Shown here: piece after piece, positions 406 to 57,757 of the stretch
Position numbering within the stretch: position 1 is the first letter of the stretch
How the letters are laid out: each line of letters starts with the position of its first letter
Assembly: GCF_044324785.1 (NCBI RefSeq)
Contig: NZ_CP172127.1
Strand: one strand, 5' to 3'
DNA: 64,000 bases
Source: Escherichia coli
Lineage (GTDB): Bacteria; Pseudomonadota; Gammaproteobacteria; Enterobacterales; Enterobacteriaceae
Notes under the pieces: generated by a model
Seen by the model: only the letters and a program-made list of their open reading frames with translations
What the model was told of the DNA's origin: nothing
The model's database searches: none
Program-made: the position numbers and the translations under genes

Positions 406-980
406 TGGCATTCAGAATGAGTGAACAACCACGGACCATAAAAATTTATAATCTGCTGGCCGGAACTAATGAATTTATTGGTGAAGGTGACGCATATATT
501 CCGCCTCATACAGGTCTGCCAGCAAACAGTACCGATATTGCACCACCAGATATTCCTGCTGGCTTTGTGGCTGTTTTCAACAGTGATAAGGCATCGTGGC
601 ATCTCGTTGAAGACCATCGGGGTAAAACGGTTTATGACGTAGCGTCAGGGGACGCGTTATTTATTTCTGAACTCGGTCCGTTACCGGAAAATGTTACCTG
701 GTTATCGCCGGAAGGGGAGTTTCAGAAGTGGAACGGCACAGCCTGGGTGAAAGATGCAGAAGCAGAAAAACTGTTCCGGATCCGAGAGGCGGAAGAAACA
801 AAAAACAGCCTGATGCAGGTAGCCAGTGAGCATATTGCGCCACTTCAGGATGCTGTAGATCTGGAAATCGCAACGGAGGAAGAAACCTCATTGCTGGAAG
901 CCTGGAAAAAGTATCGGGTGTTGCTGAACCGTGTTGATACGTCAACTGCACAGGATATTGAATGGCCAGCACTGCCGTAG
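405..980 (+). CDS. tfaQ: Tail-fibre assembly protein (TfaQ/TfaR-like)
   Basis: 191-aa ORF starting [39 protein letters not shown]; its start overlaps the tail-fibre stop, the usual stf-tfa arrangement. Confidence 0.8.
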
Positions 981-3003: not shown

Positions 3004-4287
3004 ATGGATTTCCAGTTATATTCGCTCGGCGCAGCGTTAGTGTTTCATGAAATATTTTTTCCTGAATCATCAACGGCAATGGCGTTAATTCTGGCAATGG
3101 GAACCTACGGTGCAGGTTATGTGGCACGTATTGTCGGAGCATTTATTTTCGGCAAAATGGGCGACAGAATCGGGCGTAAAAAAGTGCTCTTTATTACCAT
3201 CACCATGATGGGGATCTGTACCACCTTAATTGGTGTGCTGCCGACCTATGCACAAATTGGTGTGTTTGCGCCAATTTTGCTGGTGACGCTGCGTATTATT
3301 CAGGGGCTGGGGGCAGGCGCGGAAATTTCCGGTGCCGGCACGATGCTGGCGGAATATGCACCAAAAGGTAAGCGCGGAATTATCTCCTCATTTGTTGCTA
3401 TGGGGACTAACTGCGGAACCTTGAGCGCAACGGCAATCTGGGCCTTTATGTTCTTCATTCTCAGTAAAGAGGAACTGCTGGCGTGGGGATGGCGTATACC
3501 GTTCCTGGCGAGCGTTGTCGTGATGGTCTTTGCTATCTGGTTGCGTATGAATCTGAAAGAAAGCCCGGTCTTTGAGAAGGTTAACGACAGCAACCAACCG
3601 ACAGCAAAACCTGCACCTGCTGGTAGCATGTTCCAGAGCAAATCCTTCTGGCTGGCAACAGGGCTGCGTTTTGGTCAGGCGGGTAACTCAGGTTTAATTC
3701 AGACTTTCCTTGCAGGCTATTTAGTGCAGACGTTATTGTTTAACAAAGCAATTCCAACAGATGCATTGATGATCAGTTCGATTCTCGGCTTTATGACCAT
3801 TCCGTTCCTTGGTTGGTTATCCGATAAAATTGGTCGCCGGATCCCGTATATTATTATGAATACCTCCGCGATTGTGCTGGCATGGCCAATGCTTTCTATC
3901 ATCGTAGATAAAAGCTATGCCCCGAGCACCATTATGGTTGCACTGATTGTGATTCATAACTGTGCGGTGCTGGGATTATTTGCTCTGGAAAACATTACCA
4001 TGGCAGAAATGTTCGGCTGTAAAAACCGCTTTACCCGGATGGCTATTTCTAAAGAAATTGGTGGTCTTATCGCTTCCGGTTTTGGTCCTATCCTGGCGGG
4101 TATTTTCTGCACCATGACGGAATCCTGGTATCCGATCGCCATTATGATCATGGCATATTCAGTGATTGGTTTAATCTCTGCGCTGAAAATGCCAGAGGTG
4201 AAAGACCGTGATTTAAGTGCGCTGGAAGACGCTGCGGAAGATCAACCGCGTGTTGTAAGAGCTGCGCAACCTTCCAGAAGTCTGTAA
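3004..4287 (+). pseudogene. ydfJ: MFS metabolite:H+ symporter YdfJ, apparently 5'-truncated at the prophage junction
   Basis: 427-aa ORF with 12-TM MFS character. It opens directly in a conserved helix (DFQLYSLGAALVFHEIFFP) with an in-frame TGA two codons upstream and no signal or N-terminal segment, consistent with prophage insertion into the 5' end. Confidence 0.55.
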
Positions 4288-11858: not shown

Positions 11859-11902
11859 GCTCCGTTTAACATTCATTGAGAAAACTGATGCTACTGTGTC
11901 AA

Positions 11903-12001
11903 CGATCCGTTATCAGTGCAGGAAAATGCCTGTTAGCGTAAAAGCAAAACACAAATCTATCCATGCAAGCATTCACCGCCGGTTTACTGGCGGTTTTTTT
12001 T
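11903..12001 (+). ncRNA. mgrR: Candidate small RNA in the dgcZ-mgtS intergenic region (position expected for MgrR); boundaries approximate
   Basis: Non-coding stretch ending in a strong intrinsic terminator (caccgccgg-ttta-ctggcggt followed by T8 at 11993-12001). Location divergent from mgtS matches the known mgrR locus. The 5' end is not determined. Confidence 0.45.
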
Positions 12002-12007
12002 CGCCGT

Positions 12008-12049
12008 CATAAAAATCAGGCCCCTTGTACACAACTGTAACAAGGGGCC
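12008..12049 (-). terminator. Terminator hairpin for mgtS
   Basis: ggccccttgtacacaactgtaacaaggggcc hairpin with a flanking A-run on the + strand (T-run for the minus transcript). Confidence 0.5.
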
Positions 12050-12076
12050 GGTTAGGTGAGGGATTATCTCCGTTCA

Positions 12077-12172
12077 TTAGTCATCCCATTTGTGGCTGAA
12101 ATACGCGGCCAGAAAACCAGAAAATAAAATTATTCCCAGTACGGCCATAAAAACATTCATATTACCCAGCAT
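12077..12172 (-). CDS. mgtS: Small inner-membrane protein MgtS (YneM), 31 aa
   Basis: Hand translation of the minus strand gives MLGNMNVFMAVLGIILFSGFLAAYFSHKWDD*. It is below the ORF-track size cutoff; single TM helix. Confidence 0.8.
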   Translation of the reverse strand: MLGNMNVFMAVLGIILFSGFLAAYFSHKWDD

Positions 12173-35098: not shown

Positions 35099-36691
35099 AT
35101 GGCTCGACTCTTTACCCCTTCAGAATCAAAGTACTACCTGATGGCTCTGGATGCAGGCACCGGAAGTATTCGGGCTGTGATATTCGACCTGGAAGGCAAT
35201 CAAATAGCAGTGGGACAGGCGGAGTGGCGGCATCTGGCAGTACCGGACGTTCCTGGTTCTATGGAATTTGATCTCAACAAAAACTGGCAACTGGCGTGTG
35301 AGTGTATGCGCCAGGCGCTGCACAACGCCGGCATAGCCCCGGAGTATATCGCTGCCGTTTCGGCATGTTCGATGCGCGAAGGCATTGTTTTATATAACAA
35401 TGAAGGAACACCGATCTGGGCCTGCGCCAATGTGGATGCCAGAGCGGCGCGCGAAGTTAGCGAACTTAAAGAACTGCACAACAATATCTTTGAAAACGAA
35501 GTTTATCGCGCCACCGGACAAACGCTGGCTTTAAGCGCTATTCCCAGATTACTTTGGCTGGCGCACCATCGTTCTGATATCTACCGACAGGCGTCGACCA
35601 TCACCATGATCAGCGACTGGCTGGCCTATATGCTCAGCGGCGAACTGGCGGTGGATCCCTCTAACGCTGGCACCACGGGACTTCTTGACCTAACCACCCG
35701 TGACTGGAAACCTGCATTGCTGGATATGGCCGGACTACGGGCCGATATTCTTTCTCCTGTCAAAGAAACCGGCACATTGCTGGGCGTGGTAAGTTCACAA
35801 GCGGCGGAACTCTGCGGTCTGAAGGCGGGCACTCCGGTGGTCGTTGGAGGAGGCGACGTGCAGCTTGGTTGCCTGGGGTTAGGCGTTGTCCGTCCGGCAC
35901 AAACCGCTGTTCTTGGCGGTACATTCTGGCAGCAAGTTGTAAACTTAGCCGCGCCGGTGACAGACCCAGAAATGAACGTGCGCGTTAATCCTCATGTTAT
36001 TCCTGGCATGGTACAAGCTGAATCTATAAGCTTTTTTACCGGACTCACCATGCGCTGGTTCCGCGATGCTTTCTGTGCCGAAGAAAAACTGATTGCCGAA
36101 CGTTTAGGCATCGACACCTATACGCTGCTTGAAGAGATGGCAAGTCGGGTGCCGCCTGGGTCGTGGGGGGTAATGCCGATATTCTCCGACAGAATGCGCT
36201 TTAAAACCTGGTATCACGCTGCGCCTTCCTTTATTAATTTGTCTATTGATCCGGATAAATGTAACAAAGCGACATTGTTCCGTGCGCTGGAAGAAAATGC
36301 GGCGATTGTATCAGCGTGTAATTTGCAACAAATCGCTGATTTCTCGAATATTCATCCTTCATCGTTAGTCTTTGCAGGCGGAGGTTCAAAAGGGAAATTA
36401 TGGAGTCAAATTCTCGCTGATGTCTCGGGATTACCCGTCAATATTCCGGTAGTCAAAGAAGCCACCGCATTAGGATGTGCCATTGCAGCTGGCGTCGGTG
36501 CCGGAATTTTTTCATCAATGGCAGAAACCGGAGAACGCCTGGTTCGCTGGGAACGAACGCACTCACCAGACCCGGAAAAGCATGAACTTTATCAGGATTC
36601 ACGCGATAAGTGGCAGGCAGTTTATCAGGATCAGCTGGGGCTGGTTGATCATGGACTGACGACGTCGTTATGGAAAGCGCCTGGGTTATAG
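35099..36691 (+). CDS. lsrK: LsrK, autoinducer-2 kinase (FGGY carbohydrate kinase family)
   Basis: 530-aa FGGY kinase ORF downstream of lsrR. Confidence 0.9.
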
Positions 36692-37221
36692 TTTCATTGA
36701 CAGCCACATCATGATGACCGTGGCTGTTAGTTTTTGAGTATTGGTATTCTCATTTCCCATCTTTTAGAGCTGGCTTGTTAAATGCCAGCTTGCAAATTCA
36801 TCGTTCCATCACCAGTACTATATTCAAGTGAAAATTGCTATTTTTCTTAAAGCATTAAGCATAAGCCTTATTTTATAGCGAATATTCCTAAAGGCATTAA
36901 TGGATGAAAAAGGGGTTTAATAAACTTCTTTTTTTAGCAATTAGTGCTATTCTTTGTTAAATATGATGATGATAATCTTCTTATTGAAAGAAACAGTCTT
37001 CTTATTAAGCAACAATAACTCATGGTTCATTTTTAAATAAAATAAGAACTATGCAATTTTTAATCTATCGATTCGAAAGTATTAGCAAATTAGCCAAATT
37101 GACACCTTCCCACCTCCAACCAACACTCAATACAGACCTCTGACAACTTAATAAGTTTCATTTTTAACGTCTGATGACTCATCTCTTTCGTGGCTGTATT
37201 GTTTGTATATGGAGCGTTTAT

Positions 37222-40200
37222 ATGAATAGAATCTATCGCGTGATATGGAATTGCACCCTACAGGTATTTCAGGCCTGCTCGGAATTAACTCGCAGGGTAG
37301 GTAAAACATCGACGGTTAATTTGCATAAATCCTCTGGACTGACAACGAAATTCAGTAGATTGACGCTGGGTGTTTTGCTGGCACTAAGCGGTTCAGTGTC
37401 TGGTGCGAGTCTGGAAGTTGATAATGATCAGATTACCAATATTGATACTGATGTTGCTTATGATGCCTACCTGGTTGGGTGGTATGGCACTGGAGTGCTT
37501 AATATTTTGGCTGGCGGTAATGCCTCCTTAACCACTATTACTACCAGCGTCATTGGTGGTAATGAGAACTCGAAGGGCACCGTTAATGTTTTGGGTGGCA
37601 CCTGGCGATTGTATGATAGCGGAAATAATGCAAGGCCTTTAAATGTGGGTCAATCCGGAACGGGGACGCTGAATATTAAACAGAAGGGTCACGTTGACGG
37701 AGGATATTTAAGGATAGGTTCTTCGACAGGAGGCGTCGGGACGGTCAATGTTGAGGGAGAGGACTCGGTTCTGACGACCGAATTATTCGAAATAGGGAGT
37801 TACGGTACAGGCTCATTAAATATTACGGATAAGGGTTACGTCACGAGTTCAATCGTCGCCATTGTAGGATATCAGGCGAACAGTAATGGTAAGGTTGTCG
37901 TTGAAAAGGGTAGCGAGTGGCTAATAAAAAATAATGATTCCTCAATTGAATTTCAAATTGGTAATCAAGGGACGGGGGAAGCGACTATTCGCGATGGGGG
38001 GCTAATTACGGCTGAAAATACGATTACCGGTGGCAATGCCACCGGTATCGGAACCCTGAATGTGCAGGATCAAGACTCTGTCATCACGGTACGCAGACTC
38101 TATAATGGATATTTCGGTAATGGCACAGTCAATATTTCCAATAATGGACTGATTAATAATAAAGAATATTCATTGGTGGGCGTTCAGGACGGGTCCCACG
38201 GTGTCGTCAACGTGACCGATAAAGGGCATTGGAATTTCCTCGGAACGGGCGAAGCTTTCCGCTATATCTATGTTGGTGATGCTGGCGACGGTGAACTTAA
38301 TGTCTCGAGTGAAGGCAAAGTAGATTCGGGAATTATCACTGCGGGGATGAAAGAAACAGGCACAGGCAACATTACTGTTAAGGATAAGAACTCCGTTATC
38401 ACTAATCTCGGAACTAATCTTGGTTATGACGGCCACGGCGAAATGAATATCAGTAATGAGGGGCTTGTTGTCAGCAACGGAGGAAGCTCACTCGGTTATG
38501 GAGAAACCGGCGTCGGGAAGGTTAGCATCACCACGGGGGGGATGTGGGAGGTCAATAAGAATGTCTATACCACTATTGGTGTTGCGGGCGTCGGAAACCT
38601 CAATATCAGCGATGGCGGTAAGTTCGTATCGCAAAATATTACTTTTTTGGGCGATAAAGCAAGCGGTATCGGCACACTGAACCTGATGGATGCGACATCA
38701 TCGTTCGATACTGTGGGTATTAATGTCGGTAATTTTGGTAGCGGTATCGTAAATGTCAGTAATGGTGCCACCCTTAATTCAACGGGCTATGGATTTATCG
38801 GAGGAAATGCCTCCGGTAAGGGGATAGTTAATATTTCAACGGATAGTCTCTGGAATTTAAAGACATCATCTACTAACGCACAATTGCTACAGGTCGGTGT
38901 ATTAGGCGCGGGTGAACTGAATATTACCACCGGAGGTATAGTTAAAGCGCGTGATACACAAATAGCTCTCAATGACAAAAGTAAGGGCGACGTGCGGGTG
39001 GATGGGCAGAACTCTCTTCTTGAAACATTCAATATGAACGTAGGGACGACAGGCACGGGTACGTTAACCCTGACGAATAACGGCACGTTGAATGTCGAAG
39101 GTGGAGAAGTTTACTTAGGTGTTTTTGAACCTGCTGTAGGAACGCTAAACATTGGTGCTGCTCACGGTGAGGCGGCGGCAGATGCCGGGTTTATCACCAA
39201 TGCGACGAAAGTGGAGTTTGGTCTTGGCGAAGGCGTTTTTGTCTTTAATCATACCAATAACAGTGATGCCGGCTACCAGGTCGATATGCTGATTACGGGT
39301 GACGATAAAGACGGAAAAGTGATGCATGATGCAGGCCATACGGTGTTCAATGCAGGGAATACTTATAGCGGTAAAACGCTGGTCAATGACGGCCTCCTGA
39401 CTATTGCGTCACATACGGCAGATGGGGTAACGGGCATGGGATCGAGTGAAGTCACCATTGCAAACCCCGGTACGCTCGACATTCTCGCATCAACGAACAG
39501 TGCAGGAGATTACACGCTGACCAATGCGCTCAAAGGCGATGGCTTGATGCGAGTGCAGCTGTCATCCTCCGACAAAATGTTTGGCTTTACCCATGCAATA
39601 GGAACTGAATTCGCCGGTGTTGCCCAACTGAAAGACAGTACCTTCACACTGGAACGCGACAACACCGCTGCGCTTACTCACGCGATGCTGCAGTCTGACA
39701 GTGAAAATACCACATCGGTAAAAGTGGGAGAGCAATCCATTGGTGGACTAGCCATGAATGGCGGTACGCTCACTTTCGATACGGATATACCTGCTGCGAC
39801 GCTTGCGGAGGGATATATCAGCGTCGATACGCTGGTTGTCGGCACGGGTGACTACACCTGGAAAGGCCGTAACTATCAGGTAAACGGGATGGGCGACGTG
39901 CTTATCGACGTGCCTAAACCGTGGAATGATCCCATGGCGAATAACCCTCTGACGACGCTCAATTTGCTGGAACACGATGATAGTCATGTCGGCGTTCAAC
40001 TGGTGAAGGCGCAAATGGTTATTGGGTCGGGTGGCTCATTAACGTTACGTGATTTACAGGGCGACGAGGTGGAAGCGGACAAAACGTTACATATTGCACA
40101 AAACGGGACAGTGGTCGCCGAGGGTGATTATGGATTCCGCCTCACGACCGCACCTGGTGATGGTTTGTATGTTAACTATGGGCTGAAAGCGCTGAACATC

Positions 40201-42642
40201 CATGGTGGGCAAAAGCTGACGTTAGCCGAACATGGCGGAGCCTATGGCGCAACGGCCGATATGTCGGCAAAAATCGGTGGTGAAGGGGATCTGGCAATCA
40301 ATACGGTGCGACAGGTTTCGCTTTCCAACGGTCAGAACGACTATCAGGGGGCAACCTACGTTCAGATGGGGACATTACGTACCGATGCGGATGGCGCGCT
40401 GGGCAATACTCGGGAACTAAACATCAGCAACGCGGCCATCGTCGATCTTAATGGATCGGCCCAGACGGTAGAGACATTCACCGGGCTGATGGGTTCGACT
40501 GTTTTGTTTAAAGAGGGGTCGCTGACGGTGAATAAAGGTGGGATCAGTCAGGGCGAACTGACAGGTGGCGGAAACCTGAATGTTACAGGGGGAACGCTGG
40601 CTATCGAGGGGCTTAATGCACGCTACAATGCCTTAACCAGCATTAGCTCAAATGCGGAAGTCAGCCTCGATAATACGCAGGGGTTAGGCAGAGGAAATAT
40701 TGCCAATGACGGTCTGTTAACGCTAAAAAACGTGACCGGCGAACTGCGTAATAGCATAAGCGGGAAGGGTATCGTGAGCGCAACCGCCAGGACAGACGTA
40801 GAGCTGGATGGCGATAATAGCCGCTTTGTGGGGCAATTCAACATTGATACAGGCAGCGCGCTCAGCGTCAACGAGCAGAAAAACCTGGGTGATGCTTCCG
40901 TTATCAATAATGGCCTGCTCACCATCTCCACTGAGCGTAGCTGGGCGATGACGCACAGTATCAGCGGTAGCGGTGATGTGACAAAACTGGGTACCGGGAG
41001 CCTGACTCTTAACAACGATTCCGCGGCGTATCAGGGTACGACGGATATCGTGGGTGGTGAAATTGCTTTCGGTTCCGACTCTGCCATTAATATGGCAAGT
41101 CAGCACATTAATATCCATAACAGCGGTGTGATGTCGGGAAATGTCACCACTGCAGGTGATGTGAACGTTATGCTAGGGGGGACACTGCGTGTCGCCAAAA
41201 CCACTATCGGCGGCAATCTGGAGAATGGTGGCACGGTTCAAATGAATAGCGAAGGGGGGAAACCGGGGAATGTGCTGACCGTTAACGGCAACTATACCGG
41301 AAACAATGGCCTGATGACGTTCAACGCGACGCTGGGCGGAGATAATTCACCCACGGATAAAATGAACGTGAAAGGCGATACCCAAGGGAACACTCGCGTT
41401 CGGGTTGATAACATTGGCGGCGTCGGTGCACAAACGGTCAACGGTATTGAACTCATTGAGGTCGGCGGTAATTCTGCAGGTAACTTCGCGCTGACCACCG
41501 GAACTGTCGAAGCTGGGGCTTACGTCTACACGCTGGCTAAAGGGAAGGGGAATGACGAGAAAAACTGGTATCTGACCAGTAAATGGGACGGCGTAACGCC
41601 AGCGGATACACCCGATCCCATCAATAATCCCCCTGTTGTGGATCCGGAAGGCCCATCAGTTTATCGCCCGGAGGCCGGAAGCTATATCAGCAACATTGCC
41701 GCAGCCAACTCGCTGTTTAGCCATCGCTTACACGACCGTCTGGGTGAGCCGCAGTATACAGATTCACTGCGAGTTCAGGGTTCGGCAAGCAGTATGTGGA
41801 TGCGTCATGTCGGGGGGCACGAACGTTTCAGGACCGGTGACGGCCAGCTAAATACTCAGGCTAACCGCTATGTATTGCAGCTAGGAGGCGATTTGGCGCA
41901 GTGGAGTAGCAACGCGCAGGATCGCTGGCATCTTGGCGTGATGGCAGGCTACGCCAATCAGCACAGTAATACTCAGAGTAATCGTGTGGGTTATAAATCG
42001 GATGGGCGCATCAGCGGTTACAGCGCAGGACTGTACGCGACCTGGTATCAGAACGATGCGAATAAGACCGGCGCTTATGTTGACAGCTGGGCGCTGTATA
42101 ACTGGTTTGATAACAGCGTCAGTTCCGATAACCGCTCGGCTGACGACTATGATTCTCGCGGTGTGACGGCCTCTGTTGAGGGTGGGTATACCTTTGAAGC
42201 GGGAACATTTAGCGGCAGCGAAGGGGCGCTGAATACCTGGTACGTCCAGCCACAGGTACAAATCACCTGGATGGGTGTGAAAGATTCTGACCATACCCGG
42301 AAAGACGGAACACGCATTGAAACAGAAGGCGACGGAAACGTGCAAACGCGGCTTGGGGTGAAAACCTACCTGAACAGTCATCACCAGCGTGACAATGGTA
42401 AACAGCGTGAGTTCCAGCCTTACATTGAAGCGAACTGGATCAACAACAGCAAAGTCTACGCCGTGAAGATGAATGGTCAAACCGTAAGCCGTGATGGTGC
42501 GCGTAATCTCGGTGAAGTACGTACCGGGGTTGAGGCGAAAGTAAATCACAACCTTAGCCTGTGGGGGAATGTCGGTGTGCAACTAGGTGATAAAGGCTAT
42601 AGCGATACTCAGGGCATGCTGGGTGTGAAATATAGCTGGTAA
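37222..42642 (+). CDS. yneO: Large AIDA-I-type autotransporter adhesin (type Va secretion)
   Basis: Start taken at MNRIYRVIWNCTLQVF, an extended autotransporter signal peptide, with GGAG at 37211-37214. Long beta-helical passenger with repeated GxGTLNI/GxGxLNV motifs; C-terminal beta-barrel ending ...GMLGVKYSW. One continuous ORF of about 1,806 aa from this start. Confidence 0.85.
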   Translation: MNRIYRVIWNCTLQVFQACSELTRRVGKTSTVNLHKSSGLTTKFSRLTLGVLLALSGSVSGASLEVDNDQITNIDTDVAYDAYLVGWYGTGVLNILAGGNASLTTITTSVIGGNENSKGTVNVLGGTWRLYDSGNNARPLNVGQSGTGTLNIKQKGHVDGGYLRIGSSTGGVGTVNVEGEDSVLTTELFEIGSYGTGSLNITDKGYVTSSIVAIVGYQANSNGKVVVEKGSEWLIKNNDSSIEFQIGNQGTGEATIRDGGLITAENTITGGNATGIGTLNVQDQDSVITVRRLYNGYFGNGTVNISNNGLINNKEYSLVGVQDGSHGVVNVTDKGHWNFLGTGEAFRYIYVGDAGDGELNVSSEGKVDSGIITAGMKETGTGNITVKDKNSVITNLGTNLGYDGHGEMNISNEGLVVSNGGSSLGYGETGVGKVSITTGGMWEVNKNVYTTIGVAGVGNLNISDGGKFVSQNITFLGDKASGIGTLNLMDATSSFDTVGINVGNFGSGIVNVSNGATLNSTGYGFIGGNASGKGIVNISTDSLWNLKTSSTNAQLLQVGVLGAGELNITTGGIVKARDTQIALNDKSKGDVRVDGQNSLLETFNMNVGTTGTGTLTLTNNGTLNVEGGEVYLGVFEPAVGTLNIGAAHGEAAADAGFITNATKVEFGLGEGVFVFNHTNNSDAGYQVDMLITGDDKDGKVMHDAGHTVFNAGNTYSGKTLVNDGLLTIASHTADGVTGMGSSEVTIANPGTLDILASTNSAGDYTLTNALKGDGLMRVQLSSSDKMFGFTHAIGTEFAGVAQLKDSTFTLERDNTAALTHAMLQSDSENTTSVKVGEQSIGGLAMNGGTLTFDTDIPAATLAEGYISVDTLVVGTGDYTWKGRNYQVNGMGDVLIDVPKPWNDPMANNPLTTLNLLEHDDSHVGVQLVKAQMVIGSGGSLTLRDLQGDEVEADKTLHIAQNGTVVAEGDYGFRLTTAPGDGLYVNYGLKALNIHGGQKLTLAEHGGAYGATADMSAKIGGEGDLAINTVRQVSLSNGQNDYQGATYVQMGTLRTDADGALGNTRELNISNAAIVDLNGSAQTVETFTGLMGSTVLFKEGSLTVNKGGISQGELTGGGNLNVTGGTLAIEGLNARYNALTSISSNAEVSLDNTQGLGRGNIANDGLLTLKNVTGELRNSISGKGIVSATARTDVELDGDNSRFVGQFNIDTGSALSVNEQKNLGDASVINNGLLTISTERSWAMTHSISGSGDVTKLGTGSLTLNNDSAAYQGTTDIVGGEIAFGSDSAINMASQHINIHNSGVMSGNVTTAGDVNVMLGGTLRVAKTTIGGNLENGGTVQMNSEGGKPGNVLTVNGNYTGNNGLMTFNATLGGDNSPTDKMNVKGDTQGNTRVRVDNIGGVGAQTVNGIELIEVGGNSAGNFALTTGTVEAGAYVYTLAKGKGNDEKNWYLTSKWDGVTPADTPDPINNPPVVDPEGPSVYRPEAGSYISNIAAANSLFSHRLHDRLGEPQYTDSLRVQGSASSMWMRHVGGHERFRTGDGQLNTQANRYVLQLGGDLAQWSSNAQDRWHLGVMAGYANQHSNTQSNRVGYKSDGRISGYSAGLYATWYQNDANKTGAYVDSWALYNWFDNSVSSDNRSADDYDSRGVTASVEGGYTFEAGTFSGSEGALNTWYVQPQVQITWMGVKDSDHTRKDGTRIETEGDGNVQTRLGVKTYLNSHHQRDNGKQREFQPYIEANWINNSKVYAVKMNGQTVSRDGARNLGEVRTGVEAKVNHNLSLWGNVGVQLGDKGYSDTQGMLGVKYSW

Positions 42643-42717
42643 ACCGTATAAGCCGCATGTCGAAGATGCATGCGGCTTAATATTGCCGACTTCAAACGAC
42701 TTTTAAATCCTCCTTTT

Positions 42718-42831
42718 TATCCGCGATCGCGGATATCACAGTGTTTATCCCGTAGAGCGGATAAGATGTGTTTCCTGATTGACTTTATCCCCACTAAAGG
42801 ATAAAACTGATAATATCCCCTTGAGCGGATA
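42718..42831 (+). promoter_or_regulatory. hipBA promoter with four HipB operator palindromes (TATCC-N8-GGATA)
   Basis: Exact TATCC-N8-GGATA palindromes at 42718-42735, 42746-42763, 42786-42803 and 42814-42831, immediately upstream of hipB. Confidence 0.85.
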
Positions 42832-42852
42832 AATATGCTGTGGACGTATGAC

Positions 42853-43119
42853 ATGATGAGCTTTCAGAAGATCTATAGCCCAACGCAATTAGCGAATGCA
42901 ATGAAACTGGTTCGCCAGCAAAATGGCTGGACGCAGAGCGAGCTGGCGAAAAAAATTGGCATTAAGCAGGCGACAATTTCCAATTTCGAAAACAACCCTG
43001 ACAATACCACGCTGACGACCTTTTTTAAGATTTTACAGTCGCTTGAACTCTCAATGACACTATGCGACACGAAAAATGCCTCGCCAGAATCAACAGAACA
43101 GCAAGATCTGGAGTGGTAA
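42853..43119 (+). CDS. hipB: HipB antitoxin (Xre/Cro-type HTH)
   Basis: 88 aa, MMSFQKIYSPTQLANAMKLVRQQNGWTQSELAKKIGIKQATISNFE...; its stop overlaps the hipA start by 1 bp. Confidence 0.9.
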   Translation: MMSFQKIYSPTQLANAMKLVRQQNGWTQSELAKKIGIKQATISNFENNPDNTTLTTFFKILQSLELSMTLCDTKNASPESTEQQDLEW

Positions 43120-44441
43120 TGCCCAAACTTGTCACTTGGATGAACAACCAGCGGGTAGGCGAGTTAACGAAGTTAGCCAACGGCGCGCACACCTTTAAGT
43201 ATGCACCGGAGTGGTTAGCCAGCCGTTATGCCAGACCGTTGTCACTTTCGCTGCCATTGCAGAGGGGGAATATCACCTCTGATGCCGTATTTAACTTCTT
43301 CGATAACCTGTTACCCGATAGCCCGATTGTACGTGACCGGATCGTTAAACGCTATCATGCCAAATCCAGACAACCGTTTGATTTATTGTCAGAAATAGGG
43401 CGAGACAGCGTTGGTGCCGTGACGTTAATACCCGAAGACGAAACCGTAACGCATCCGATAATGGCATGGGAAAAGCTTACTGAAGCCAGACTTGAAGAAG
43501 TATTAACGGCTTATAAAGCAGATATCCCGCTAGGCATGATTAGAGAAGAAAATGACTTTCGCATCTCGGTTGCTGGCGCACAGGAGAAGACAGCACTGCT
43601 CAGAATAGGCAATGACTGGTGCATTCCGAAAGGAATAACGCCGACGACGCACATCATTAAATTACCGATTGGCCAAATCAGGCAGCCCAATGCGACGCTC
43701 GATCTCAGCCAAAGCGTTGATAATGAGTATTACTGTCTGCTGCTGGCGAAAGAACTTGGGTTGAATGTTCCGGACGCAGAAATCATTAAAGCGGGAAGGG
43801 TGCGCGCGTTAGCGGTCGAACGTTTTGACAGGCGTTGGAATGCTGAGCGAACGGTTTTACTTCGCTTGCCACAGGAGGATATGTGTCAGACATTCGGTTT
43901 ACCTTCATCGGTGAAATATGAATCAGATGGAGGCCCAGGCATCGCGCGGATCATGGCTTTTTTGATGGGGTCCAGCGAGGCGCTGAAAGATCGCTATGAT
44001 TTTATGAAGTTTCAGGTGTTCCAGTGGTTGATTGGCGCAACGGATGGCCATGCAAAAAACTTCTCCGTATTTATTCAGGCTGGCGGCAGTTATCGACTCA
44101 CGCCATTTTACGACATCATTTCAGCATTTCCGGTATTGGGTGGCGCAGGAATACACATCAGCGATCTCAAACTGGCAATGGGGCTTAACGCATCCAAAGG
44201 CAAAAAAACGGCAATCGATAAAATTTATCCGCGACATTTTCTGGCGACAGCAAAGTTGCTGAAATTTCCGGAAGTGCAGATGCATGAAATCCTGAGTGAC
44301 TTTGCCAGAATGATTCCGGCAGCACTGGATAACGTGAAGACTTCATTACCGACAGATTTTCCGGAGAACGTGGTGACGGCAGTTGAAACCAATGTGTTGA
44401 GGTTGCACCGTCGGTTAAGCCGAGAATACGGTATTAAGTAA
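43119..44441 (+). CDS. hipA: HipA serine/threonine kinase toxin
   Basis: 440 aa from MPKLVTWMNNQRVGELTKLANGAHTFKYAPEWLA; HipA N- and C-terminal kinase domains. Confidence 0.9.
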   Translation: MPKLVTWMNNQRVGELTKLANGAHTFKYAPEWLASRYARPLSLSLPLQRGNITSDAVFNFFDNLLPDSPIVRDRIVKRYHAKSRQPFDLLSEIGRDSVGAVTLIPEDETVTHPIMAWEKLTEARLEEVLTAYKADIPLGMIREENDFRISVAGAQEKTALLRIGNDWCIPKGITPTTHIIKLPIGQIRQPNATLDLSQSVDNEYYCLLLAKELGLNVPDAEIIKAGRVRALAVERFDRRWNAERTVLLRLPQEDMCQTFGLPSSVKYESDGGPGIARIMAFLMGSSEALKDRYDFMKFQVFQWLIGATDGHAKNFSVFIQAGGSYRLTPFYDIISAFPVLGGAGIHISDLKLAMGLNASKGKKTAIDKIYPRHFLATAKLLKFPEVQMHEILSDFARMIPAALDNVKTSLPTDFPENVVTAVETNVLRLHRRLSREYGIK

Positions 44442-54391: not shown

Positions 54392-54512
54392 TTCGCCTCC
54401 TCATTTCTTCTGCTGTCATCCGCACAGCAGAAGAATTCCTCATTGACCATTGTCGCGCAATTTACTCACATGTGCTAAATTTAAACTGCTCGTTATAAGA
54501 TATATACCTCCT

Positions 54513-54529
54513 CCTACAGCTGTAAGAAA
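54513..54529 (+). promoter_or_regulatory. EvgA-box-like inverted repeat upstream of safA-ydeO
   Basis: TCCTACA-GC-TGTAAGAA, about 110 bp upstream of safA; lies within a roughly 45-bp stretch similar to the ydeP upstream element. Confidence 0.6.
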
Positions 54530-54639
54530 CTCCGCTCAGTACTGAAGCGCCAGTCCTATTTCCTCTACTCTCCAGCCTGTTATATTAAGCATACTGATTA
54601 ACGATGCTTAACGTCATTCGTTTAATAAACACATTTGAA

Positions 54640-54831
54640 ATGCATGCGACCATAGTGAAAAATAAAATCACGCAAAGAGACAACTATAAAGGGATCATGT
54701 CTGTAATTGTGGTTGTCTTATTACTGACCCTTACGGTGATAGCCATTTTTTCGGCAATTGATCAGCTGGGTATTTCAGAAATGGGTCGCATTGCAAGGGA
54801 TCTTACACATTTCATTATCAATAGTTTGTAA
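54640..54831 (+). CDS. safA: SafA small membrane connector protein (EvgS/EvgA to PhoQ/PhoP)
   Basis: MHATIVKNKITQRDNYKGIMSVIVVVLLLTLTVIAIFSAI...; single TM helix; start taken at the internal Met of ORF 54604-54831. Confidence 0.75.
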   Translation: MHATIVKNKITQRDNYKGIMSVIVVVLLLTLTVIAIFSAIDQLGISEMGRIARDLTHFIINSL

Positions 54832-54911
54832 GACTGAAAATAAACAGCAAATTATAAATATGAAATGTTAAAAAAGTATCGATAAAAACTTTATTGTTTT
54901 AAGGAGATAAA

Positions 54912-55673
54912 ATGTCGCTCGTTTGTTCTGTTATATTTATTCATCATGCCTTCAACGCTAACATTTTAGATAAAGATTACGCCTTCTCAGACGGCGAGAT
55001 CCTGATGGTAGATAACGCTGTTCGTACGCATTTTGAACCTTATGAGCGGCATTTCAAAGAAATCGGATTTAATGAAAATACCATTAAAAAATATCTACAA
55101 TGCACTAACATCCAGACAGTGACGGTGCCTGTTCCTGCGAAGTTTTTACGTGCTTCAAATGTACCGACTGGATTGCTTAATGAAATGATTGCTTATCTCA
55201 ACTCGGAAGAACGCAATCATCATAATTTTTCAGAACTTTTGCTTTTTTCTTGCCTGTCTATTTTTGCCGCATGCAAAGGTTTCATTACACTATTAACTAA
55301 CGGTGTGCTATCCGTTTCCGGGAAAGTGAGAAATATTGTCAACATGAAGCTGGCGTACCCATGGAAGCTGAAAGATATTTGTGACTGCCTGTACATTAGT
55401 GAAAGCCTGTTGAAGAAAAAACTTAAGCAAGAGCAAACGACATTCTCACAGATTCTTTTAGATGCCAGAATGCAGCACGCAAAAAATTTGATACGCGTAG
55501 AAGGTTCAGTCAATAAAATTGCCGAACAATGTGGTTATGCCAGTACATCTTATTTTATTTATGCGTTCCGCAAACATTTCGGCAACAGTCCGAAGAGAGT
55601 TTCTAAGGAGTACCGTTGTCAAAGGCACACCGGTATGAACACGGACAACACGATGAGTGCTTTAGCTATTTGA
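54912..55673 (+). CDS. ydeO: AraC-family acid-resistance regulator YdeO
   Basis: 253-aa ORF with a C-terminal AraC double HTH, downstream of safA. Confidence 0.85.
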   Translation: MSLVCSVIFIHHAFNANILDKDYAFSDGEILMVDNAVRTHFEPYERHFKEIGFNENTIKKYLQCTNIQTVTVPVPAKFLRASNVPTGLLNEMIAYLNSEERNHHNFSELLLFSCLSIFAACKGFITLLTNGVLSVSGKVRNIVNMKLAYPWKLKDICDCLYISESLLKKKLKQEQTTFSQILLDARMQHAKNLIRVEGSVNKIAEQCGYASTSYFIYAFRKHFGNSPKRVSKEYRCQRHTGMNTDNTMSALAI

Positions 55674-56074
55674 TTATTTGCTAACGAGTAGTCAACCACA
55701 CACGCTACGTAAGAATTAAATGGGGCAGCCATTTCCTGCCCCGCGTTGTTTTTAGGCGATATATTTATTGAAATAAATAAGTGACACTCATCACATATTT
55801 ATGCATTTGCATAACCTGTTGCATAATTATTTATGATCTTAATTCGGAATTTTGTCAGTAAAATACAATAATTTATTAAATATCAATAGATTAGTTGTTT
55901 ATCTGCGAGAAATTACTTAGTAGAATAGAAAGTAATGTCAACAGTTTATGGACTGTTATTTCTCTTTTTTTAGCTAAATCTGCTATCTCTTTATGTGACT
56001 AACTTCACTTACATCCACTTATTTCTCTTCGTAAAATTACTTTGGAATTAAGTACAATAAGAAGAGGAACATTT

Positions 56075-57757
56075 ATGAAGTCTGCATTAAAGAAAAGTGT
56101 CGTAAGTACCTCGATATCTTTGATACTGGCATCTGGTATGGCTGCATTTGCTGCTCATGCGGCAGATGATGTAAAGCTGAAAGCAACCAAAACAAACGTC
56201 GCTTTCTCAGACTTTACGCCGACTGAATACAGTACCAAAGGAAAGCCAAATATTATCGTACTGACCATGGATGATCTTGGTTATGGACAACTTCCTTTTG
56301 ATAAGGGATCTTTTGACCCAAAAACAATGGAAAATCGTGAAGTTGTCGATACCTACAAAATAGGGATAGATAAAGCCATTGAAGCTGCGCAAAAATCAAC
56401 GCCGACGCTCCTTTCATTAATGGATGAAGGCGTACGTTTTACTAACGGCTATGTGGCGCACGGTGTTTCCGGCCCCTCCCGCGCCGCAATAATGACCGGT
56501 CGAGCGCCCGCCCGCTTTGGTGTCTATTCCAATACCGATGCTCAGGATGGTATTCCGCTAACAGAAACTTTCCTGCCTGAATTATTCCAGAATCATGGTT
56601 ATTACACTGCAGCAGTAGGTAAATGGCACTTGTCAAAAATCAGTAATGTGCCGGTACCGGAAGATAAACAAACGCGTGACTATCATGACAACTTCACCAC
56701 ATTTTCTGCGGAAGAATGGCAACCGCAAAACCGTGGCTTTGATTACTTTATGGGATTCCACGCTGCAGGAACGGCATATTACAACTCCCCTTCACTGTTC
56801 AAAAATCGTGAACGCGTCCCCGCAAAAGGTTATATCAGCGATCAGTTAACCGATGAGGCAATTGGCGTTGTTGATCGTGCCAAAACACTTGACCAGCCTT
56901 TTATGCTTTACCTGGCTTATAATGCTCCGCACCTGCCAAATGATAATCCTGCACCGGAGCAATATCAGAAGCAATTTAATACTGGTAGTCAAACAGCAGA
57001 TAACTACTACGCTTCCGTTTATTCTGTTGATCAGGGTGTAAAACGCATTCTCGAACAACTGAAGAAAAACGGACAGTATGACAATACTATTATTCTCTTT
57101 ACCTCCGATAATGGTGCGGTTATCGATGGTCCTCTGCCGCTGAACGGGGCGCAAAAAGGCTATAAGAGTCAGACCTATCCTGGCGGTACTCACACCCCAA
57201 TGTTTATGTGGTGGAAAGGAAAACTTCAACCCGGTAATTATGACAAGCTGATATCCGCAATGGATTTCTACCCGACAGCTCTTGATGCAGCCGATATCAG
57301 CATTCCAAAAGACCTTAAGCTGGATGGCGTTTCCTTGCTGCCCTGGTTGCAAGATAAGAAACAAGGTGAGCCACATAAAAATCTGACCTGGATAACCTCT
57401 TATTCTCACTGGTTTGATGAGGAAAATATTCCCTTCTGGGATAATTACCACAAATTTGTCCGCCATCAGTCAGACGATTACCCGCATAACCCCAACACCG
57501 AAGATTTAAGCCAATTCTCTTATACGGTGAGAAATAACGATTATTCGCTAGTCTATACAGTAGAAAACAATCAGTTAGGTCTATACAAACTGACGGATCT
57601 ACAGCAAAAAGATAACCTTGCCGCCGCCAATCCGCAGGTCGTTAAAGAGATGCAAGGCGTGGTAAGAGAGTTTATCGACAGCAGCCAACCACCGCTTAGC
57701 GAGGTAAATCAGGAGAAGTTTAACAATATCAAGAAAGCACTAAGCGAAGCGAAATAA
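56075..57757 (+). CDS. ydeN: Periplasmic sulfatase (arylsulfatase family)
   Basis: Start taken at MKSALKKSVVSTSISLILASGMAAFA (signal peptide); sulfatase domain. The formylglycine-motif position carries serine (SGPSR), i.e. a Ser-type sulfatase. Confidence 0.8.
   Translation: MKSALKKSVVSTSISLILASGMAAFAAHAADDVKLKATKTNVAFSDFTPTEYSTKGKPNIIVLTMDDLGYGQLPFDKGSFDPKTMENREVVDTYKIGIDKAIEAAQKSTPTLLSLMDEGVRFTNGYVAHGVSGPSRAAIMTGRAPARFGVYSNTDAQDGIPLTETFLPELFQNHGYYTAAVGKWHLSKISNVPVPEDKQTRDYHDNFTTFSAEEWQPQNRGFDYFMGFHAAGTAYYNSPSLFKNRERVPAKGYISDQLTDEAIGVVDRAKTLDQPFMLYLAYNAPHLPNDNPAPEQYQKQFNTGSQTADNYYASVYSVDQGVKRILEQLKKNGQYDNTIILFTSDNGAVIDGPLPLNGAQKGYKSQTYPGGTHTPMFMWWKGKLQPGNYDKLISAMDFYPTALDAADISIPKDLKLDGVSLLPWLQDKKQGEPHKNLTWITSYSHWFDEENIPFWDNYHKFVRHQSDDYPHNPNTEDLSQFSYTVRNNDYSLVYTVENNQLGLYKLTDLQQKDNLAAANPQVVKEMQGVVREFIDSSQPPLSEVNQEKFNNIKKALSEAK

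Follow-up and report, generated by a model that had tools for sequence, protein, structure and literature searches.

The gene between lsrK and hipB of Escherichia coli K-12 MG1655 is the pseudogene yneO (b4696, formerly ydeK + ydeU), whose product is named 'AIDA-I family autotransporter YneO' in a table of PMC10782963; this name is a family-level label. Literature searches on yneO yielded only regulator-binding tables, a listing in a Keio screen and IS2 insertions from an evolution experiment. Herein, we analyzed a stretch of 64,000 nt from E. coli (contig NZ_CP172127.1 of assembly GCF_044324785.1; hereafter the window) in which the gene at this locus is uninterrupted. We conclude, with a probability of roughly 0.8, that it represents an intact allele of yneO, a chromosomal autotransporter gene of E. 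coli, and that it encodes a classical type Va secretion protein. The gene family is already known and catalogued, and the copy in the window is an ordinary one. AIDA-I itself is plasmid-borne; the window gene, by contrast, is chromosomal and core-like.

An intact yneO allele between lsrK and hipBA

The longest plus-strand open reading frame (ORF) in the window spans positions 37174-42642, equivalent to 1822 aa. Within it, ATG 37222 was taken as the start, because a GGAG lies ahead of it at 37211-37214, RefSeq uses the same start base for homologues, and position 1 of the Pfam ESPR model aligns to residue 1 of the protein that begins there. The resulting coding sequence (CDS) and its nearest neighbors are as follows:

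37222-42642, plus strand: autotransporter CDS of the ECSE_1600/YneO family, 5421 nt, 1806 aa plus stop
35099-36691: lsrK, the upstream neighbor
from about 42835: hipBA, the downstream neighbor

A preliminary description of this sequence had proposed one continuous ORF of about 1,806 aa, and the proposal was confirmed: the frame of 37222-42642 contains no internal stop codon, and its single stop is terminal. The GC content of the CDS is 50.2%. The gene is preceded by lsrR and lsrK and followed by hipB and hipA, and the order lsrK-autotransporter-hipBA was also found in strain 1190, K-12, enterotoxigenic E. coli (ETEC) H10407, and three GenBank assemblies.

Family membership was clear along the whole protein. 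When compared with the NCBIfam profile NF011422, 'ECSE_1600 family autotransporter', aa 1-1806 aligned with profile positions 1-1806 and reached 4115.9 bits, where the curated cutoff is 2335. An identical protein is public as UniRef entry UPI000BE1C54E ('ECSE_1600 family autotransporter [Escherichia coli]') and occurs on 205 contigs; clustering at 90% identity places it in a group of 18,868 sequences. Exactly this protein is encoded at the same locus in the three GenBank assemblies, two of which match the window over the 7200 nt of the locus 36222-43421 with 0 mismatches, while the third is one base off.

The K-12 copy occupies the same lsrK-hipBA locus and shares 97.1% DNA identity with the window gene over the whole gene. 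Its upstream spacer is also 530 nt long, is identical at 504 of the 530 positions, and carries the same marbox; the two spacers differ, among other positions, in the final base of the predicted -10 hexamer. Whereas the window gene is intact, with six consecutive Gs (G6) at about CDS position 3955, K-12 yneO is 5422 nt long, has G8 at that site, and stops at codon 1326. The K-12 equivalent is therefore a disrupted pseudogene, as had been stated beforehand, and its lesion is a +1 G frameshift and not an insertion. Another autotransporter pseudogene of K-12, ydbA (interrupted by IS2 and IS30), was also considered as the counterpart and was ruled out by the lsrK and hipBA neighbors; a tblastn search of the window protein against the ydbA locus was empty at E ≤ 1e-5.

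Domain architecture of the protein

The following parts were recognized along the protein, all on the plus strand:

37222-37407: extended signal peptide, ESPR (aa 1-47) plus hydrophobic core, PF13018, E 7.7e-14
37462-39102: N-terminal passenger, aa 81-627, about 20 degenerate turns of ~25 aa (xVGxxGxGxLNIxxxGxV), predicted right-handed β-helix
39103-41214: second passenger module, aa 628-1331, including PATR repeats, conserved, with 30-48% identity to counterparts in many very large autotransporters
41215-41535: autochaperone or pertactin-like junction, aa 1332-1438, PF18883 (AC_1), E 3e-26, and PF03212 (Pertactin), E 1.6e-10
41794-42573: outer-membrane β-barrel translocator, aa 1525-1784, PF03797, E 6e-42

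The features that define type Va secretion are thus found together. An ESPR-type Sec signal and a C-terminal 12-stranded β-barrel domain were recognized in the sequence, and between them lies a β-helical passenger with a C-terminal autochaperone, the structure of the passenger being an AlphaFold2 (AF2) prediction. Both ends of the protein agree with the preliminary description, which had named an extended autotransporter signal peptide and a C-terminal β-barrel translocator. For the latter, the Pfam match is joined by TIGR01414 over aa 1346-1806 (E 1.4e-122) and by sequence homology of aa 1345-1806 to the solved AIDA-I transport unit 4MEE (E 2.9e-87). The autochaperone region also matches, in sequence, the IcsA autochaperone, for which solved structures exist (3ML3 and 5KE1). 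On the minus strand, opposite the part of the gene that encodes the barrel, lies a TTG-started ORF of 233 aa (41881-42582), which probably just shadows the long coding frame; several shorter antisense ORFs also occur.

According to the -3/-1 rule, cleavage by signal peptidase I is likely after VSGA(62), in the context ...LALSGSVSGA/SLEV. Some older database names call the protein 'autotransporter barrel domain-containing lipoprotein' or 'lipoprotein YdeK'. The only cysteines of the whole protein are residues 11 and 19, both within the ESPR, and no lipobox cysteine follows the hydrophobic core of the signal peptide; the lipoprotein label therefore has no lipobox behind it and looks like an annotation carry-over.

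The passenger is about 1270 aa long; about 20 degenerate turns of 25 aa come first, and a second module, conserved and β-rich, comes after them. Within aa 81-627, an iterated position-specific scoring matrix identified 18 clear and a few weaker copies of the ~25-aa unit, and the loose pattern G.G.[LVIM].[LVIM] had 21 matches, 16 of them within aa 89-617. Self-similarity of the protein peaked at a lag of 104-105 aa (z 5.8), which gives a super-period of ~105 aa, and nine stretches matched the NCBIfam model TIGR04393 (T5SS/PEP-CTERM-associated repeat). The β-helix repeats reported at the outset are real, but they number about 20 and not dozens. The AF2 model of aa 63-700, for which an alignment of 17 distant repeat stretches was used, consists entirely of short strands and reached a mean local confidence (pLDDT) of 90.1 and a predicted TM-score (pTM) of 0.90. 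Searched with Foldseek, it had the Ag43 and TibA passengers as its best neighbors in the PDB (prob 1.0, 11-15% identity, TMq 0.23-0.33).

The second module is the best-conserved part of the protein among its relatives, whose best-matching stretches fall mostly in aa ~700-1262. A search of 1.84 billion representatives returned 3396 relatives at E ≤ 1e-3, of which 353 reached E ≤ 1e-30; many of the relatives are autotransporters of 2000-7700 aa with 30-48% identity. The best match to the PATR model PF12951 (E 9.5e-5) covers aa 1253-1281. For aa 620-1345, AF2 gave an all-β model with pLDDT 81.7 and pTM 0.77. Within it, aa ~842-1054 (39745-40383) are predicted to form strands of 12-15 residues rather than short helix turns. 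This long-strand segment is common to hundreds of giant autotransporters and contains the near-invariant motif RLTTAPGDGLYVNYGL at aa ~973-988. No convincing counterpart of aa ~842-1054 was found among solved structures, the Foldseek search of the middle module returning weak, generic matches to β-helix autotransporters, and a sequence search of the PDB gave no match for the first ~1190 aa.

Relation to other described autotransporters

The protein had initially been described as AIDA-like, which holds for the autochaperone and the barrel, that is, the last ~500 aa, but not for the passenger, which does not match AIDA-I. Positions 801-1286 of the AIDA-I profile (NCBIfam NF033176) align to aa 1298-1805, and the autochaperone and the 12-stranded barrel are clearly homologous. 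However, the score was 356.2 bits against a cutoff of 1200, with the first ~1300 aa unmatched, and the unit of ~25 aa differs from the 19-aa AIDA repeat. No Pfam AIDA-type repeat domain was found in the scanned aa 1-1100, which hold the repeats. AIDA-I and TibA have an adjacent heptosyltransferase gene (aah and tibC) that serves to glycosylate the passenger; none was found here, where the neighbors are lsrK and hipB, and neither spacer flanking the autotransporter gene contains an ORF of at least 80 aa.

For the modelled N-terminal passenger, the best structural neighbors were Ag43 and TibA (4KH3, 7KOH, 7KO9, 4Q1Q), which share the three-stranded right-handed β-helix. They differ in turn length, and the window passenger is roughly double their length and contains an additional conserved module. 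In the self-associating class to which Ag43, TibA, and AIDA-I belong, cells aggregate by head-to-tail contacts between passengers. Both passenger modules are shared, at 30-48% identity, with the very large autotransporters of many bacteria that carry TIGR04393 and PATR repeats; these proteins are often 2000-7700 aa long and have many more repeat blocks. In MisL and ShdA of Salmonella and in YfaL and EhaC of E. coli, the C-terminal translocator is homologous to that of the window protein, but the corresponding profiles scored far under their own cutoffs and their matches were restricted to aa ~1300-1806.

Intact and broken copies across E. coli

Among the complete E. coli genomes in RefSeq, 4363 of 5426 matched the gene, and in 3952 the match covered at least 80% of it. 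The best identity to the gene in this set was 98.3%, and that of the lsr flank was at most 99.3%, so the source lineage is seemingly missing from it. To describe the state of the gene, we sampled 30 complete genomes at even steps down the match ranking and inspected the 20 contiguous full-length matches. Nine copies were intact (5421 nt), 11 were annotated as frameshifted, 4 were interrupted by insertion sequences (IS), and 5 were partial; the remaining genome was without the gene. Only about one-third of the sampled genomes that still carry the gene therefore have it intact. The interrupting elements in the four copies were IS2, an IS3-family element, IS5, and ISEc1. The copy in ETEC H10407 is frameshifted.

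A joint alignment placed most of the frameshifts at a few positions. Nine of the 11 frameshifted alleles had gained or lost one G in one of four runs encoding Gly-Gly (GGG-GGG), and the other two share an 8-bp duplication. In the window, the four runs are as follows:

37996-38001 (CDS ~774-780): G6
38535-38541, plus strand (CDS 1314-1320): G7, the longest run in the window allele
41052-41059 (CDS 3831-3838): GGGTGGTG, so that the window allele has no run here
41176-41181 (CDS ~3955): G6; G8 in K-12, where it is the frameshift site

In one sampled genome (L016), the counterpart of 38535-38541 is G8, with a premature stop at codon 446. Shortening of the CDS 3831 run was seen on two different allele backgrounds (L022 vs L019-L021), which points to at least two events, although some of the changes in the runs could be homopolymer sequencing errors. 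IS elements have also entered the gene experimentally, three IS2 insertions in yneO having been reported from a K-12 evolution experiment. The weak points of the gene are the poly-G runs and IS insertions, and K-12 represents one such loss.

Upstream spacer and putative regulation

The region between lsrK and the autotransporter gene contains the following elements:

36692-37221, no strand assigned: AT-rich lsrK-yneO spacer, putative regulatory region, 530 nt, 32.3% GC
36933-36947, minus strand: marbox (MarA site) GCACTAATTGCTAAA, centered 282 nt upstream of the ATG
37140-37168, plus strand: predicted counterpart of the predicted K-12 sigma-70 promoter, CTGACA-17-TTTAAC

An AT-rich upstream region of 530 bp had been noted before, and the measured values agree, with 32.3% GC in the spacer against 50.2% in the CDS and 24% GC in the lowest 200-nt window. 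The spacer aligns without gaps to that of K-12, with 26 mismatches in 530 positions. A perfect TTGACA is located at 37099-37104; no good -10 hexamer follows it at the proper distance.

The marbox sequence GCACTAATTGCTAAA has a single match in the window, with 0 mismatches, where 0.01 would be expected by chance, and the site is conserved in K-12 and strain 1190. In H10407, its center lies 283 nt upstream of the homologous gene. MarA chromatin immunoprecipitation sequencing in ETEC H10407 revealed a peak with the same sequence that was assigned to ETEC1580/yneO (PMC5684230, Table 1), and the site was bound by purified MarA at 0.3 µM (PMC5684230); in the main text of that paper, yneO appears in Table 1 only. 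Through the identical H10407 site, the gene has one of the marks of a mar/sox/rob regulon member, a marbox bound by MarA both in vivo and in vitro.

Genomic SELEX (systematic evolution of ligands by exponential enrichment) has located two further sites in the K-12 yneO-lsrK spacer, namely a site for the RpoD holoenzyme with the predicted promoter CTGACA-17-TTTAAT (PMC3946193, Table 2) and a site for H-NS, both bound in vitro (PMC3946193). Silencing of the autotransporter gene by H-NS, which had been suggested from base composition, is plausible, given the AT-rich spacer and the H-NS site in its K-12 counterpart; literature searches yielded no report of derepression in an hns mutant or of silencing of yneO in vivo. 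Located after a spacer of 32% GC, the K-12 equivalent of which is bound by H-NS in vitro, the gene would probably be poorly expressed in the laboratory. Because a high-affinity MarA site lies in the same spacer, stress-induced anti-silencing is possible, if unproven.

Proposed function and points against it

By analogy with the type Va class, the precursor would cross the inner membrane via Sec, slowed by the ESPR, and the barrel would be inserted into the outer membrane by the β-barrel assembly machinery (BAM). The passenger would then be threaded outward, C-terminus first and nucleated by the autochaperone, on which it would fold into a surface rod. Exposed in this way, and judging from its class, it most likely acts as an adhesin, an aggregation factor, or a biofilm factor.

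Several observations weigh against reading the gene as a functional autotransporter of this kind. As the frequent pseudogenization shows, many lineages can do without the gene. Considering that no experiment or functional study on a YneO-family protein was found in the searchable literature, we infer adhesion, aggregation, and surface display from class membership. The likeness of the modelled passenger to Ag43 and TibA is at the level of the fold only (TMq 0.23-0.33, 11-15% identity). At the level of regulation, the binding of H-NS is an in vitro result for the K-12 spacer and not for that of the window strain; the -10 hexamer at 37163-37168 is TTTAAC in the window and in strain 1190 as compared with TTTAAT in K-12, so that the final T is lost; and a simple consensus scan of the spacer called no sigma-70 promoter.

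Alternative readings

The preliminary description had warned that the repeats make the gene prone to recombination and assembly artefacts. Were this so, the long ORF or its repeat count might reflect collapsed or expanded repeats, for which the repetitiveness of the protein would be the sole argument. At the DNA level, no such repetition was found: Tandem Repeats Finder called no tandem repeats in the CDS, the direct-repeat families in it are 15-36 nt long and 60-93% identical, and the longest exact direct repeat is 11 nt, compared with 11-15 nt in codon shuffles. The repeats being visible in the protein only, neither repeat recombination nor assembly collapse is expected. In agreement with this, no change by a repeat unit was observed among 22 aligned alleles, all 10 intact alleles are exactly 5421 nt long, and the window is matched base for base over 7.2 kb by two independent assemblies. 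The warning was not supported, and we give an assembly artefact practically no weight. A more serious objection is that the ORF is intact by chance, the gene being a decaying relic without current function that has not yet been disrupted in the window strain. This would fit the 9 intact copies in 30 sampled genomes, the roughly 20% of complete genomes in which no match was found, and the missing consensus promoter. It is difficult to reconcile with the ratio of nonsynonymous to synonymous substitution (dN/dS), which was 0.15 among the 10 intact alleles at dS up to 0.10 and differed little between the repeats at the N-terminus, the middle module, and the translocator. A ratio this low throughout indicates purifying selection on the whole protein where the gene is retained, and an ORF of 5.4 kb would not remain open at such divergence without selection. 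The presence of the identical protein on 205 contigs also speaks against a relic, which we regard as improbable.

The concentration of frameshifts raises the question of whether the locus is a phase-variable contingency locus, whose poly-G runs would have been selected as slippage tracts for turning the surface protein on and off within populations. Nine of 11 frameshifted alleles with a ±1 G change in four G7/G8 runs, and the shortening of one run on two backgrounds, would be in line with this. On the other hand, five G runs of at least 6 were observed where a shuffle of glycine codons gave 2.4 ± 1.35 (P = 0.07), the four runs in the window allele are short or interrupted (G6, G7, none, and G6), and some of the single-base G7/G8 differences could be homopolymer sequencing errors. 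Runs of 7-8 Gs are also short relative to classical contingency tracts. Because the enrichment over the shuffle is not significant, the runs are read as a by-product of a glycine content of 14.9% and not as evolved switches, and phase variation appears slightly less credible even than a relic. It was also considered whether the passenger might be a secreted enzyme or toxin, such as a protease, lipase, or cytotoxin, instead of an adhesin. The segment of aa ~842-1054, with its longer strands and no convincing match to a solved structure, leaves some room for this. However, neither Pfam nor NCBIfam revealed a catalytic domain anywhere in the protein, the N-terminal module is nearest to the self-associating adhesins Ag43 and TibA, and the SPATE proteases match weakly, via their β-helix stalk. 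An enzyme or toxin is accordingly very unlikely.

Downstream flank and other features of the window

One structured element follows the autotransporter gene:

42649-42679, plus strand: stable 12-bp GC-rich hairpin, 7 nt past the stop codon, dG -23 kcal/mol, z -4.1

None of 200 shuffled sequences folded as well (0/200). The hairpin is not followed by a U-tract, and a terminator scan of the flanks called no site; it is possible that the hairpin forms a 3' end or acts as a stabilizer. Farther downstream, four TATCC-N8-GGATA palindromes (42718-42735, 42746-42763, 42786-42803, and 42814-42831) precede hipB, and we take them to resemble the classical HipB operators. As these operators begin at 42718, hipBA has a control region of its own, separate from the autotransporter gene.

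When the whole window was scanned against Rfam, the autotransporter locus and its surroundings gave no RNA family. The only matches at the gathering threshold were the Hfq-binding small RNA STnc560 at 11870-12083 (plus strand, 281.9 bits) and IS009 at 748-946 (plus strand, 226.7 bits). The GC content of the whole window is 47.0%, and further AT-rich islands occur, for example, around 1751-2500, 45001, 51751, and 54501-56250.

Implications

Since most losses occur at four poly-G runs, calling the gene present from BLAST coverage would overestimate the number of strains that produce the protein. For its regulation, a MarA site and in vitro H-NS binding in one spacer provide a concrete hypothesis. 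In an extended form, YneO would be a stress-responsive surface factor that is silenced by H-NS, switched on by MarA, and toggled between lineages or even within populations by G7/G8 slippage. We consider this improbable as a whole; if true, it would link the mar antibiotic-stress regulon to adhesion or biofilm formation in the E. coli strains with an intact gene. A strain with an intact copy, unlike K-12, is the right material for testing the function of the protein.

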